DNA of 64,000 bases from an uncultured Oscillospiraceae bacterium (GTDB taxonomy: Bacteria > Bacillota > Clostridia > Christensenellales > CAG-138), in the NCBI GenBank assembly GCA_964440115.1, contig CAYTPV010000007.1, positions 23,107 through 87,106 on the forward strand, in the 5' to 3' direction. Under the pieces are notes generated by a model. It was not told the origin of the DNA, did not search any database, and saw only the letters and a list, made by a program, of their open reading frames with translations. Positions 6,490 to 21,970 of this stretch are shown here, piece after piece. Numbering within the stretch: the first letter of the stretch is position 1; every line of letters begins with the position of its first letter. The translations under genes were made by a program, and so were the position numbers.

Positions 6490-6587
6490 TTACTTCGCGT
6501 CGACCTTCGCCATGTGGACGATAAGGTCGAGGACCTTGTTGGAATAACCCCACTCGTTGTCATACCAGGCAACCAGCTTGACGAAAT
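6490..6587 (-). repeat. Attachment site: duplicated 3' end of gap (98 bp)
   Basis: 97/98 identical to 20957-21054; the one change is synonymous (CTT/CTC Leu). Confidence 0.95.
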
Positions 6588-7034
6588 AAAAATGCCCGAT
6601 TTTAGGCGCTTTCTCGCTCTCTCAATAAGCAGAGCTTCGTATTTTTTCACAAATAGTTATCATACCAGAACAATAACTAATTGCTTACTAAAATAGAGTT
6701 TATCATACTTGAACATGAAAGTACATCACTAGTAAAACTTCCTTAGGTCTCATATAATTTCGATACATCTTAAGCATCATTTTAAAATCATCCACAACAT
6801 TATTAGGCGAAACAATCTATAAATCAGTACCGAATCGGAGTAGCCAAGCATAGAATTGCTGACTCAAAATAACGGGTCCCACAATTGCACAAAACCTTTT
6901 TTCTCTGTTAACTAGGGTAGCCAGTAGGGAAGATGTTGCACTTAAAATTGCGCAAGAATAATTGAACAGACAATAATGTTTGGGACATAGCGGTTCGTTT
7001 TATTGCGTTAGTCAGCATATTAAATTAATTCCAC

Positions 7035-7085
7035 TGCCGGAAGTGGGACTCGAACCCACACGGTTCGCTACCAACGGATTTTGAG
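7035..7085 (-). pseudogene. tRNA-Leu(CAA) 3' half (att-like fragment)
   Basis: The minus strand reads CT-CAA-AA anticodon loop, long variable arm ggt-agcga-acc, gtggg-TTCGAGT-cccac T-arm and acceptor 3' strand ttccggc-a. The 5' half and CCA are absent. Confidence 0.85.
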
Positions 7086-7192
7086 AGGGTGAAAAGTGTT
7101 GGAATGGTTAGGAACGGTATGCATTGGAATGCCTTAAAATGGGGCGTTTTAGTCACCTTTGGAAAGCACCTACGATAGCTACTAAGCTATTT

Positions 7193-7225
7193 CGGTGGAA
7201 CATTCGGTAGAACTCGCGGTAGAAC
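7193..7225 (+). repeat. Three 9-bp direct repeats CGGT(G/A)GAAC with 12-bp period
   Basis: Copies start at 7193, 7205 and 7217, ~110 bp from the tRNA fragment. Confidence 0.8.
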
Positions 7226-7704
7226 ATAACACGGCTTAGCATCCAGTATGCAATTATTACTATCGTTTTATTTTGGTGAGAGAAAGGCCGACGGGTCTTT
7301 AGATAAGAAACCAACTAAAACGCCGATAAATTGTGGCGTTTTGCCGCTAGACTCTTATAGTATTGTCGCTTAGCAGCATCAAAGTGGGTTTTGGGAACCA
7401 CATTACGTCGTCCAGTTATCACTTTTTGATAAATTTCATAGAGAGCCGGGTATTCGTATGATAACTTATTACAATAAAGGACAAAAGAATAAGAACAATT
7501 ACGAATTCAAAGTTATGTGGTGTAGAATCTATAACCAAGGGTGAGTTCAAGTGTTGTAATGAATGTGAATCTGAGTGGACTTCACTAAACGATGTTGCAG
7601 TTTAAAAACTAGCAACCCATGATAAGTTTGGGAATCGTAGCATAATAGGATGGGCTTTGGTCGGTTACATACACCTTCTTCCTCAATCCGCTATTATATT
7701 TAGG

Positions 7705-8286
7705 TTATTCTATAACGCTACAGACTCTCCAGAATATTTTCCACATATCTTCCAACGTTTTGTCGTTAATACCTATTTTGTTAACAGCATTTTGCAGTAT
7801 CCATTCTAATATGCCCATAACAAATACATAATACAAATTACTAAATATGGTAGCTTCAGTTATATCTATCCCTTTGCTTAAAAATAGGTCCATAATAACA
7901 GAGTGTAATTGGCTGTTAAATCTAAGCATAACTTTACGCGATGCAATACTTAAATGGGCTTCTGAATTCACTATCATTAACTGTGTTCTTTTCAATAAAA
8001 GTAACCGGTCTAATGGTGATTCCCTCACAAATGTTTTAACAATCGCAAATAACGCGATTTCCAAAGATGTGCCAATATTTCCTTTTACGGTTATCTCAAT
8101 TTCCTGAAGATATTTGTTCATTTCATTCTCTAATATGGTCAAATATAATTGATCTTTACTTTTAAAATAATTATATAGAGTAGCTTTAGTAAGGCCAACA
8201 TCATCCGCTACGTTCTGTAAAGAACCGTTGTAACCCTCTGTGGCAAATAAATGTAACGCGGCATGATATATCTCTTGCTTTTTCAT
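7705..8286 (-). CDS. TetR/AcrR-family transcriptional regulator
   Basis: N-terminal HTH: ALHLFATEGY...VADDVGLTKATLYNYFKSKDQL. Confidence 0.9.
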   Translation of the reverse strand: MKKQEIYHAALHLFATEGYNGSLQNVADDVGLTKATLYNYFKSKDQLYLTILENEMNKYLQEIEITVKGNIGTSLEIALFAIVKTFVRESPLDRLLLLKRTQLMIVNSEAHLSIASRKVMLRFNSQLHSVIMDLFLSKGIDITEATIFSNLYYVFVMGILEWILQNAVNKIGINDKTLEDMWKIFWRVCSVIE

Positions 8287-8415
8287 TGTTCAAATATACT
8301 ATAAAATACCAATAGTATCAAGGATTTTTTGTCGAAGATTTTATTAAAGTTATACTCATATGTATCGAAATATAATACGACCAACTAGTTGATAGTAGTA
8401 AAAGGAGGGATCTAA

Positions 8416-19508: not shown

Positions 19509-19574
19509 ATTGACTACCACAAAGGCTGCTTCGAGCAATTGTTAGTTTGATATCATCGTAAAGGCTAAAATAGA

Positions 19575-19605
19575 AAAAAGGAGCGACTTTTAATCGCTCC
19601 TTTTT
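19575..19605. terminator. Bidirectional intrinsic terminator
   Basis: aaaaaggagcga...tcgctccttttt between convergent ORFs. Confidence 0.8.
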
Positions 19606-19610
19606 ATAAT

Positions 19611-19826
19611 TCATGCAACCTCGTGCCACCTGTTTTCCCTAGCAAGCACATTCCCGTCATTGTCCCCAAACTTGGGTATCTCCCTATAATGGGGAAACGT
19701 CGCAAGGAACCACCGTTTCACATAGTTGTATGGATTACGTTGCACCCCCGCCATTGTCCTGACTGTTTTAAAATCTTGCCAAATAAATAGGGCATCTTGG
19801 AGCTTGATACTTCTTGAAGATACCAA
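19611..19826 (-). CDS. Small hypothetical or degraded ORF downstream of the integrase
   Basis: 71-aa ORF co-oriented with the integrase, followed by a terminator; start lacks a clear RBS. Confidence 0.35.
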   Translation of the reverse strand: MVSSRSIKLQDALFIWQDFKTVRTMAGVQRNPYNYVKRWFLATFPHYREIPKFGDNDGNVLARENRWHEVA

Positions 19827-19887
19827 TCATGATGCAGTAAGTTGATTTGGGTTGTAGTATTTTCTATAAAGTTTGTATGGACTTCTA

Positions 19888-20787
19888 TCAAAGATGCGCC
19901 AATACGCCTGTTCTTCTAGCTGTACGCAAAATCTGAGCGTCCTGCATCGATTCTAGGTATCTTTGCGTGATTGCAACACTTTCATGCCCTAAAAGCCGGC
20001 TAAGGCTATATAAGTCAAGCCCGTTTTTTAACTGTAGTTGCGCAAAGGTGTGCCTACAGGTATGAGGCGAGACTCTTACCATAGGATTCACATTTACTGC
20101 TGCCGCCGCATTCTTAATGAACTTCGAAATTCCTTCCTCAGTCAACCGTTTTCCATTCTTGCTTAGAAACACAAGGTCACTCTCGCGCCTGTACTGAAAA
20201 TAGGCGTTTCGGACTTGTAAGTATTTCATTAACCATTTCGCAACCATTGGGTTTTTGGGGACAACACGTTCCTTTCTTCCTTTTCCATAAATGCAAAAGT
20301 AGGTGTCTCTTATTTGGTCCAAGCGCATATTGATAAGCTCCCCGAGGCGAATGCCCGTATTGAAGAAAATCATAAGTATTATCTTGTTTCGGATGCTCAG
20401 ATAGTCCATTCCATTGTAGTAGTTGATGATCTTTGTTATTTCCTCATCGGAGAAGGTATGTATGAGGACTTTTGGTTGTTTCAAATTCTTGATCTTCTCA
20501 GTTAAAAGTGAGCTGGTATAACCTTCATTAAACGCATAACGAGACAGGCATTTTATTGATTTCAGAATGTCATTGATATAGGACGGCTTATTTCCTCTTC
20601 GCTCATAGCTGACAAGAAATTCTTTTATCATCTGCGGCCTTATCTGTTCTACTTCAGAAATATTTTGCCGTTCTAGGAACGCAAGGAAATAAGAGATTTG
20701 TGTTTGATAGAACTTGACCGTTCTGGGCGAGAGATTCCGCACATAGCAATCGAATTCAAACTCTTTGGCTAACTCTTTGAGCAACAT
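19888..20787 (-). CDS. Tyrosine recombinase/integrase
   Basis: Catalytic residues all present: TGIR, GKGRKER, HTCRH, LGHES, TQRY; start set at ATG 20787 after AAAGAGGT. Confidence 0.95.
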   Translation of the reverse strand: MLLKELAKEFEFDCYVRNLSPRTVKFYQTQISYFLAFLERQNISEVEQIRPQMIKEFLVSYERRGNKPSYINDILKSIKCLSRYAFNEGYTSSLLTEKIKNLKQPKVLIHTFSDEEITKIINYYNGMDYLSIRNKIILMIFFNTGIRLGELINMRLDQIRDTYFCIYGKGRKERVVPKNPMVAKWLMKYLQVRNAYFQYRRESDLVFLSKNGKRLTEEGISKFIKNAAAAVNVNPMVRVSPHTCRHTFAQLQLKNGLDLYSLSRLLGHESVAITQRYLESMQDAQILRTARRTGVLAHL

Positions 20788-20956
20788 AAAAACATACCTC
20801 TTTCTCAAAGCTTTACACTCAAAGAAAGAGGTATGATAACGCTTTTGGATTTTGTACGGTTATCGTACCATGCGCGGTTTATCGTACCACAAAGATACCC
20901 AAACCTTAACGTTTATCGGCACGCCCGCAACAGAAAACCCAGCCAAATCGGTTGTT

Positions 20957-21970
20957 TTACTTCGCGTCGACCTTCGCCATGTGGACGATGAGGTCGAGGA
21001 CCTTGTTGGAATAACCCCACTCGTTGTCATACCAGGCAACCAGCTTGACGAAATGATCGTTGAGGCTGATACCTGCGCCGGCATCGAATATGGAAGTACG
21101 GGAGTCGGTGATAAAGTCGGAAGAAACGACCTGATCCTCGGTGTAGCCGATGATGCCGGCCCATTCCGGGCTTTCGGAAGCGGCCTTCATGGTTGCCTTG
21201 ATCTCGTCGTAGGTCGCAGCCTTATCCAGGCGGCAGGTAAGGTCAACAACGGAAACGTCCGCCGTGGGCACGCGGAAGGACATACCGGTCAGCTTGCCGT
21301 TCAGGGAGGGGATAACCTTGCCGACTGCCTTGGCGGCGCCGGTGGAGCTGGGGATGATGTTGAACGCCGCGCCGCGGCCGCCGCGCCAATCCTTGGCGGA
21401 GGGGCCGTCCACCGTTTTCTGGGTAGCGGTGGTGGCATGCACGGTGGTCATAAGGCCTTCAACGATGCCGAACTTGTCGTGAATGACCTTAGCCAGAGGA
21501 GCAAGGCAGTTGGTGGTGCAGGATGCGTTGGAAACCACCTTCATGTCTTTGTTGTATTTATCCTGGTTAACGCCCATAACAAACATGGGAGCATCAGCCG
21601 ACGGAGCGGAGATAACGACCTTCTTGGCGCCGCCGACGAAGTGGGCGGATGCTTTTTCGGTGGTGGTGAATACGCCGGTGGATTCCACGACATAATCCGC
21701 ACCGCACTCGCTCCAGGGGATGGTGGTGGGATCTTTGGCAGCGTATACGCTGATTTCCTTGCCGTTTACAACCAGCTTGCCGTCCTTGGTGTGGGCTTCG
21801 CCCTTGAACTTGCCATGCACGGTATCATAGGTCAGCATGTAAACCATGTATTCCAAGTCGATAAAAGGATCGTTAATACCTACCACTTCTACTTCCGGGT
21901 TGGCGACGGAAGCACGGAACACGAGACGACCGATGCGGCCAAAACCGTTGATGCCTACCTTAACTGCCAT
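20957..21970 (-). CDS. gap: Glyceraldehyde-3-phosphate dehydrogenase (type I)
   Basis: [33 protein letters not shown]. Confidence 0.99.

Follow-up and report, generated by a model that had tools for sequence, protein, structure and literature searches.

The stretch of DNA analysed here (64,000 nucleotides of contig CAYTPV010000007.1 from an uncultured Oscillospiraceae bacterium, hereafter the window) carries a gap gene, encoding glyceraldehyde-3-phosphate dehydrogenase (GAPDH), whose 3' end is present twice. The locus thus raises the question of how the terminal part of a core glycolytic gene came to be duplicated, with a recombinase gene beside it, in a chromosome in which the gene itself is still whole. 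The region extending from about position 6,550 to about position 21,016 is very probably a mobile element integrated in a site-specific manner, whose Xer-like tyrosine integrase joined the attachment site of the element (attP) to that of the chromosome (attB) within gap.

A repeat search carried out on the window disclosed a 98-nt direct repeat (6490-6587 and 20957-21054, 97/98 identical), whose copies are 14,467 nt apart and whose sole mismatch is a synonymous CTT/CTC difference, both codons specifying Leu. The organization is that of a site-specific integrative element, i.e., terminal direct repeats, one of them inside gap, and an integrase gene near one end; the open reading frame (ORF) of the integrase is intact, and its most likely start, the ATG at 20787, is 169 nt from the gap stop codon. 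A previous sequence-only reading of this DNA had reported that the last 98 bp of gap were duplicated 14.5 kb away with one synonymous difference and that an intact tyrosine integrase was located about 170 bp from the gap stop, and both statements are borne out. The GC content is 0.34-0.44 between the repeats versus about 0.47-0.56 in the flanks. The repeat is also found in a second public assembly, since a Logan contig of run DRR182650 and the island are 100% identical over 11,099 nt; each end of this contig breaks off 30 nt into the repeat, as expected when a de Bruijn graph with k=31 meets a repeat. The island of DRR182650 probably derives from the same strain as the window. Exact-sequence look-ups retrieved no record of the window GAPDH elsewhere, and retrieved DhaK and the integrase from the same sample only.

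The empty site was reached through near-identical GAPDH homologues. In two relatives, L082 (ENA, 38.5 kb) and L083 (JGI), the GAPDH is 99% identical to that of the window, and both the island and the integrase gene are absent. Their gene order is peptidase M29, gap, dhaK, dhaL, and EIIA, gap and dhaK being separated by 360 nt that include a terminator hairpin. The alignment of both junctions revealed that the window corresponds to this arrangement plus 14,467 bp, that the DNA on the left of position 6490 is the native region downstream of gap, and that the unoccupied target site of the two relatives matches the junctions exactly. The near relatives of the window GAPDH are labelled Feifaniaceae, Christensenellaceae, or 'Bacillota bacterium', so that the host may be a Christensenellales-like Clostridium.

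Relatives of the integrase are numerous in the protein database (1,028 at E <= 1e-20), the best 120 being 57-69% identical to it. A scan of one genome per species, queried with an alignment of integrase relatives, returned 79 loci. All the 32 loci of the clade comprising the integrase are linked to gap: in 30 of them the integrase gene has, 160-230 nt upstream and on the same strand, the end of a full gap, and in the other two the integrase follows a gap 3' fragment. The GAPDHs of the former 30 loci are only 43-76% identical to that of the window, and the hosts are therefore diverse, including Christensenellaceae, Oscillospiraceae, Ruminococcaceae, Limivicinus, and Faecalibacterium. A second gap 3' end, located downstream in eight loci, bounds elements of 1,871-10,404 bp. 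Hence, an empty attB (in L082 and L083) and integrase homologues adjoining gap with the same duplication (30 + 2 loci, eight of them with the second end), which the sequence-only reading had suggested looking for, have both been found. In a neighbor-joining (NJ) tree, the 32 gap-linked integrases and that of the window form a single clade, whereas guaA- and yebC-linked integrases fall outside it: the next branches are an integrase located behind guaA (L047), and then 20 integrases located behind yebC/TACO1 genes or fragments. It is known that guaA is used as an attachment gene. In L047, whose integrase is the closest outgroup to the gap clade in this tree, guaA occupies positions 8289-9878 and the integrase gene begins at 10001; as for the sister clades, their integrases (33-41% identical) are located directly behind yebC/TACO1 3' ends or yebC 3' fragments.

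The two loci with only a gap 3' fragment are L004 and L084. In L004, an apparent exception, two different gap elements (5-706 and 9745-10894) are arranged in tandem; the first integrase is followed by a gap fragment beginning exactly at AACGAGTGGGG, and then by the second integrase. In L084 (IMG/VR UViG_3300006099_000008, 65 kb), a clade integrase (49% identical) has only the last 44 gap codons upstream, and the whole unit, consisting of these codons, the hairpin described below, and the integrase gene (9697-10909), is embedded in phage genes, with tape-measure, Dit, and minor tail genes upstream and more phage-family genes downstream. This is the attP configuration of a temperate phage, and the gap fragment is thus carried along by the element. 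Phages have the integrase module as well; among GenBank phages, the best match of the window integrase is 31% identical, so that none of the named phages is usable as a reference. The clade acts at gap in many Clostridia, and its elements range from minimal ones of 1.9 kb to temperate phages.

The comparison of the two gap ends in the different loci allows the point of recombination to be narrowed down. In L004, L006, L007, L008, L010, and L012, the identity between the copies starts at AAYGAG/TGGGG (codons N-E-W-G) and runs to the stop codon, and in L014 it stops at GAGTGGGGGTA, the remaining 60 nt, downstream of the crossover, differing at 17 positions, all synonymous. Since the two patterns overlap over about 11 nt (GAGTGGGGNTA), it is likely that the strands are exchanged within this segment, in the conserved WYDNEWG codons. 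The same boundary is found at AACGAGAAC in a subgroup (L015, L022) whose GAPDH reads WYDNENSY, and all the gap-carrying loci that were checked have TGGTAYGAYAAYGAR in gap. The crossover window assigned to attR (Table 1) was deduced from the limits of attL/attR identity in eight other elements and in L004. As for the products, the element-borne and the displaced gap ends of nine pairs differ at 41 nucleotides and at only three amino acids (17 and none, respectively, in L014). The element-borne end has therefore been kept functional, in agreement with the earlier proposal that the element supplies a replacement C-terminus of GAPDH. In L014 (Christensenella tenuis NSJ-35; 9391-9747 and 19028-19384), the displaced gap copy is 188 codons long.

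The integrase contains a Phage_integrase domain (PF00589, E 5.7e-34) preceded by an N-terminal SAM-like domain. Residues R147, K172, H242, R245, H268, and Y277 are invariant in an alignment of 37 integrases, as in a tyrosine recombinase; from the XerD numbering, they are taken here as the R-K-H-R-H-Y catalytic set. With the SAM-like domain beginning at residue 15 and the catalytic one spanning residues 120-287, the layout leaves no space for more in a protein of this length; therefore, the arm-binding domain of the lambda-type integrases is absent. The best matches are XerC (186.7 bits) and XerD (176.5 bits) and, among PDB structures, 1a0p (XerD) and 4a8e (XerA); the NCBIfam equivalog cut-offs (335.15 for XerC and 329.6 for XerD) are not reached, and the protein is accordingly neither a XerC nor a XerD. 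A TTG at 20808, given as start codon by a mechanical ORF list, was discarded: it is located inside the hairpin, and the alignment with homologues begins at the ATG at 20787.

The 10-mer GGTAYGAYAA, which corresponds to W-Y-D-N in the core, has six exact matches in the window versus 0.25 expected (none of 100 shuffles reached six), all of them at the ends of the island. Two are in the cores, three (two direct and one inverted) are between the gap stop codon and the integrase, and one is at the far end, about 70 nt inside the island, with a one-mismatch copy 43 nt further in; this far-end pair also occurs in L015 and L022, with a spacing of 44-45 nt. Copies of the core motif are present between gap and the integrase in at least 20 of the 32 loci. 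Since the integrase has no space for an arm-binding domain, the copies in the arms would, with fair probability, be extra binding sites read by its core-binding domain. An inverted partner half-site across the crossover was also sought, and is not claimed, as the similarity by eye was only about 7/12.

In all the 28 family sequences examined, the integrase ATG is preceded, at a distance of 1-9 nt, by a hairpin of 13-23 bp (-19 to -36 kcal/mol). Its 3' arm is purine-rich (typically GAAAGAGG), lies at Shine-Dalgarno distance from the start codon, and is followed by a T-run. The sequences of the arms differ in 27 of the 28 cases, with the pairing retained. The RNAalifold consensus fold recovers only seven pairs, because the loop lengths differ, with compensatory changes in five of them; the figures given above come from the folding of each sequence, in place of the consensus fold. 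For the complete 181-nt spacer present in the window, the fold has z = -4.2. From its position and shape, the chances are about even that the hairpin acts both as a gap terminator supplied by the element and as an occluder of the integrase ribosome-binding site. A promoter placed inside the hairpin loop was considered and dropped, no consistent -35/-10 pair being present. The native gap hairpin, which lies outside the element, is of the same type and is 84% identical over 58 nt to the P' arm and hairpin of the element; hairpins of this native type (ATACCTCTTTC...GAAAGAGGTAT) are located at 6415-6456 in the window, at about 11048-11097 in L082, and at about 2591-2652 in L083. The native terminator could be the fossil of an older element of the gap family, or it could have been captured by the element.

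The insertion at a defined site, the association of the whole clade with that site, the presence of a gap end on the element, and the conservation of the encoded peptide have been demonstrated, and the following mechanism can be proposed to connect them. The Xer-like tyrosine integrase would recombine the attP of the element with a chromosomal attB located inside the WYDNEWG codons of gap, about 65 nt before the stop codon, exchanging the strands within the 11 nt or so of GAGTGGGGNTA. As attP would bear a copy of the last gap codons, integration would swap the end of gap for the equivalent one borne by the element and leave the original one isolated 14.5 kb away. Devoid of an arm-binding domain, the integrase would assemble on the GGTAYGAYAA copies of both arms. 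The hairpin preceding its start codon would become the new gap terminator and, by hiding the ribosome-binding site, might shield the integrase from the strong gap transcript. The composite picture is put forward tentatively, its probability as a whole being just short of even: an undescribed monophyletic clade of short Xer-like integrases of gut and rumen Clostridia (Christensenellales, Oscillospiraceae, Faecalibacterium, and others) would be dedicated to the WYDNEWG segment of gap and would serve phages, 2-kb elements, and cargo islands; the attP arm sites would be copies of the core half-site read without an arm-binding domain; the universal hairpin would be at once gap terminator and ribosome-binding-site occluder; and the native terminator would be the fossil of an earlier element.

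Other explanations of the locus can be envisaged. The constant place and orientation of the integrase behind gap over many taxa, as synteny would give, together with its XerC/XerD-like scores, might suggest a resident, domesticated host recombinase, the duplication being due to some other rearrangement. However, neither the integrase nor the island is present in the relatives whose GAPDH is 99% identical, the cargo and the size of the element vary at every locus, the same module is found in a phage genome without the rest of gap and also in tandem copies, and the GC content of the island is foreign, so that this origin is very improbable. It is scarcely credible, too, that the copy at 6490 is an assembly artefact or a local duplication and no attachment site. 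Repeats of about 100 nt do break short-read assemblies, and the Logan contig does end within the repeat; nevertheless, the flank of this copy runs collinearly into the native terminator and dhaK, as it does at the empty sites, the same arrangement is found at the own gap genes of eight other genomes, and the two copies differ at one base. Finally, the island might have been inserted by a serine recombinase, either the small resolvase or a large one of which only a fragment is left (Table 1), with the tyrosine integrase as a passenger. This is highly unlikely even though the resolvase recurs in 12 loci of the family and the large-serine-recombinase fragment is present, as most members of the family have no resolvase, including minimal elements of 1.9-2.5 kb possessing the gap repeat and the integrase; moreover, the ends of the island carry motif repeats tied to the site beside the tyrosine integrase, and long blocks of identity at the 3' end of a gene are typical of tyrosine integrases.

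Some observations weigh against site-specific integration by the Xer-like integrase as proposed here. The island is known from only one other occurrence, the identical copy of run DRR182650, probably from the same strain, and neither its excision nor a circular form is directly evidenced. In L014, the element side carries a 357-nt perfect copy of the host gap upstream of the crossover, which a simple attP x attB recombination does not predict. The integrase tree was built quickly by NJ and has no support values. That the motif is bound and that the hairpin is regulatory have been deduced from conservation only, and a promoter scan disclosed no sigma-70-like promoter between gap and the integrase. 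Lastly, domain searches recognised no relaxase, replication, phage, or excisionase gene in the island, and three genes beside the integrase (those of the small protein, the SMC-like protein, and the large serine recombinase) are truncated.

Table 1. Features of the gap island and of its surroundings; positions refer to the window, unless a locus is named.
Feature	Position	Strand	Basis
Native gap terminator hairpin, outside the element, 3' of the displaced gap end	6415-6456	-	aligned with L082, L083
attR: displaced original gap 3' end (last 32 codons and stop), detached from the gene	6490-6587	-	repeat; flank collinear with L082, L083 to dhaK
attR core: GGTATGACAA motif (6557-6566), then C, then inferred crossover window GAGTGGGGTTA (6545-6555)	6545-6566	-	motif match
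P-arm repeats, direct copies of the core motif: GGTATGATAA (6657-6666), AGTATGATAA (6700-6709), 43 nt apart	6657-6709	-	
tRNA-Leu(CAA)-like gene, 3' fragment only, from the anticodon loop through the long variable arm and the T-arm to the acceptor end	7035-7088	-	read from sequence
TetR-family regulator, cargo	7705-8286	-	PF00440, E 4.2e-12
CheW, cargo	8416-8895	+	CheW, E 1.1e-37
Methyl-accepting chemotaxis protein, cargo	8945-10732	+	MCPsignal 3.5e-52 and 4HB_MCP
PAS-GGDEF protein, cyclic di-GMP (c-di-GMP) signalling cargo	10993-11937	+	GGDEF 2.7e-29
1476-aa multi-PAS/GGDEF/HD-type protein, c-di-GMP signalling cargo	12006-16436	+	PAS folds, GGDEF 3.3e-35, HD_5 6.6e-38
Small serine resolvase, recurrent backbone gene of gap elements	16977-17573	-	PF00239, E 2e-35
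Two 24-nt direct repeats (17640-17663, 17710-17733; 70 nt apart), directly upstream of the resolvase start	17640-17733	.	
Large serine recombinase fragment ('Recombinase' domain only), pseudogene remnant	18142-18432	-	PF07508, E 2e-11, profile positions 5-62 of 102
Gene of an SMC/Rad50-like coiled-coil ATPase, truncated to the C-terminal ~63%	18360-19508	+	phrog_29295 positions 224-589 of 599; weak SMC/Rad50 NCBIfam matches
C-terminal remnant (~50 residues) of the small protein encoded behind the integrase in many relatives	19611-19826	-	tblastn
Xer-like tyrosine integrase, intact, 299 aa, no arm-binding domain	19888-20787	-	Pfam
Terminator-like hairpin; 3' arm holds the integrase Shine-Dalgarno AAGAGG; T-run, then ATG	20793-20835	-	folding
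P'-arm repeats: 20860-20869, 20879-20888 (core orientation); 20830-20839 (inverted, hairpin base)	20830-20888	.	
attL: repeat copy forming the present working gap 3' end; element-supplied 3' of the crossover (~21012-21022)	20957-21054	-	
gap (type I GAPDH, 337 aa), target gene, whole despite the insertion	20957-21970	-	Pfam Gp_dh_N and Gp_dh_C
Small-protein family	L015 1959-3590; L010 8080-8466; L022 11145-11402; L019, L021, L023 directly after int		
yebC-linked loci	L030, L031, L034-L037, L039-L042, L044-L046, L048-L051, L087-L089		

Turning to the content of the island (Table 1), the displaced gap end is followed by about 1.1 kb without credible ORFs, holding two copies of the 10-nt motif and the tRNA-Leu fragment, for which ARAGORN and Rfam gave no call (they reported nothing for the island). 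The look of this fragment suggests that it is probably a fossil attachment site of another element, and an element targeting tRNA-Leu may have been the earlier owner of part of the island. At the other end of the cargo, homologues of the resolvase (46-57% identity) are found in eight other gap elements, the protein cluster extending over 12 loci; the two 24-nt repeats upstream of its gene are a candidate res site, possibly bound by the resolvase. The large-serine-recombinase fragment overlaps the start of the truncated SMC/Rad50-like gene, which is on the opposite strand and whose ORF has no Pfam match, amid debris of genes beside the integrase.

In many relatives, the integrase is followed by small proteins of 85-200 aa, often as three tandem paralogues directly 3' of the integrase gene. 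In the two smallest elements examined (L010 and L022), such a protein is the only further recognisable gene. The remnant present in the window is 41% identical over 44 aa to residues 125-167 of an L015 paralogue, and the cluster comprises 10 loci. No significant match of the small protein was found in Pfam, NCBIfam, and PHROG (the best, E 0.004, being an unnamed PHROG), its database relatives are all 'hypothetical', and its AlphaFold model (predicted local distance difference test, pLDDT, 76; predicted template modelling score, pTM, 0.41) retrieved no PDB match better than E = 0.45. That it is an excision factor is a guess.

As regards the mobility of the copy in the window, coupling-protein, type IV secretion, and relaxase domains were found neither in the ORFs of the island nor in those sampled from two complete 10-kb relatives, so that it does not qualify as an integrative and conjugative element (ICE); nor is it classed as a prophage or satellite, given that phage structural, packaging, lysis, and replication genes were not found in the island. 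The sequence-only reading had noted that no relaxase, replication, or excisionase gene was evident and had considered the island decayed or helper-dependent; the domain searches agree with the former statement, and the latter fits the three truncated genes near the integrase and the lack of recognisable transfer and excision genes. The window copy is probably helper-dependent or no longer mobile. Between these two states, that of a dead fossil of the same origin, unable to excise or transfer, has a considerable probability, although below even. The truncated small-protein and SMC-like genes, the large-serine-recombinase fragment, the 1.1 kb of non-coding DNA with its tRNA fragment, and the transfer genes that the searches did not find all speak for it. 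On the other hand, the integrase has kept its full length and its catalytic positions are conserved, the att copies differ at one base, and the att and arm motifs are kept as exact matches, whereas all these features usually decay fast once the selection for mobility ends. Among the relatives, four have ArdC anti-restriction genes and others have WYL, RHH, and XRE regulators, which hints that they ride on conjugative elements, while the phage relative L084 shows a second transfer route.

The gap element can be compared with several known systems. Phage 21 and e14 insert in the 3' end of icd in Escherichia coli and bring a substitute 3' end with mainly synonymous differences. The similarity resides in the replacement of the 3' end of a central-metabolism gene with retention of a functional enzyme (here, 41 nucleotide versus three amino acid differences). 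The integrases of phage 21 and e14, however, are of the lambda type, with an N-terminal arm-binding domain, whereas here the target is gap instead of icd, the 299-aa integrase is Xer-like and has no such domain, and the arm repeats are core-like. ICEs, as well as integrative mobilizable elements (IMEs), of streptococci (ICESt1/ICESt3 type) insert in the 3' ends of fda (also a glycolytic gene), rplL, rpsI, guaA, and similar genes, and carry conjugation or mobilisation modules. The gap element resembles them in having a tyrosine integrase at the 3' end of a housekeeping gene and a gene-restoring direct repeat, but no conjugation or mobilisation module was found in it, and the nearest relatives of its integrase are guaA- and yebC-linked. 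With XerC, XerD, and XerA the integrase shares the two-domain architecture and its best sequence matches; unlike XerC and XerD, it scores far below the equivalog cut-offs, is borne by a mobile element, and acts at gap and not at dif. As for the hairpin, in the 'fold-back inhibition' of IS10/Tn10 a hairpin pairs the ribosome-binding site of the transposase in read-through transcripts; similarly, though by functional analogy only, the hairpin preceding the integrase may shield the recombinase from a strong neighbouring promoter. It differs from that of IS10/Tn10 in that it also resembles an intrinsic terminator and that no internal promoter bypassing it was found.

A literature search, which covered papers on TIGER/Islander, Integrase-On-Demand, and ProBord but not the TIGER/Islander tables and ICEberg, found no paper naming gap or yebC as an integrase target; this is in line with the earlier suspicion that the integrase might represent a little-described specificity class. 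TIGER/Islander comprises 1.75 million islands, 43% of which are in coding sequences (PMC12424338). Islands targeting gap may already be in its table, uncommented. The kind of element is already known. What appears to be new is the target, the integrase clade, and, in the attachment region, the hairpin combining terminator and ribosome-binding site as well as the arm repeats that resemble the core.

These data extend the range of attachment sites to a core glycolytic gene, and provide many independent cases of purifying selection acting on an element-borne gene end. The gap, guaA, and yebC sister clades represent a natural series for studying the retargeting of a simple tyrosine recombinase. 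Since gap is normally very highly expressed, the question arises of how an integrase located behind it stays silent, and the terminator/ribosome-binding-site hairpin offers a testable answer. From an applied viewpoint, an integrase that is small, consists of a single protein, and has a natural landing pad is a possible tool for genome insertion in the hard-to-engineer Faecalibacterium, Christensenella, and Oscillospiraceae. When clostridial genomes are annotated, a short Xer-like gene located behind gap should be taken as the edge of a mobile element.

Elsewhere in the window, a T-box leader (108.8 bits) is located at 54079-54296 on the forward (+) strand, and a second, milder dip in GC content (0.43-0.45) spans positions 50000-53000.

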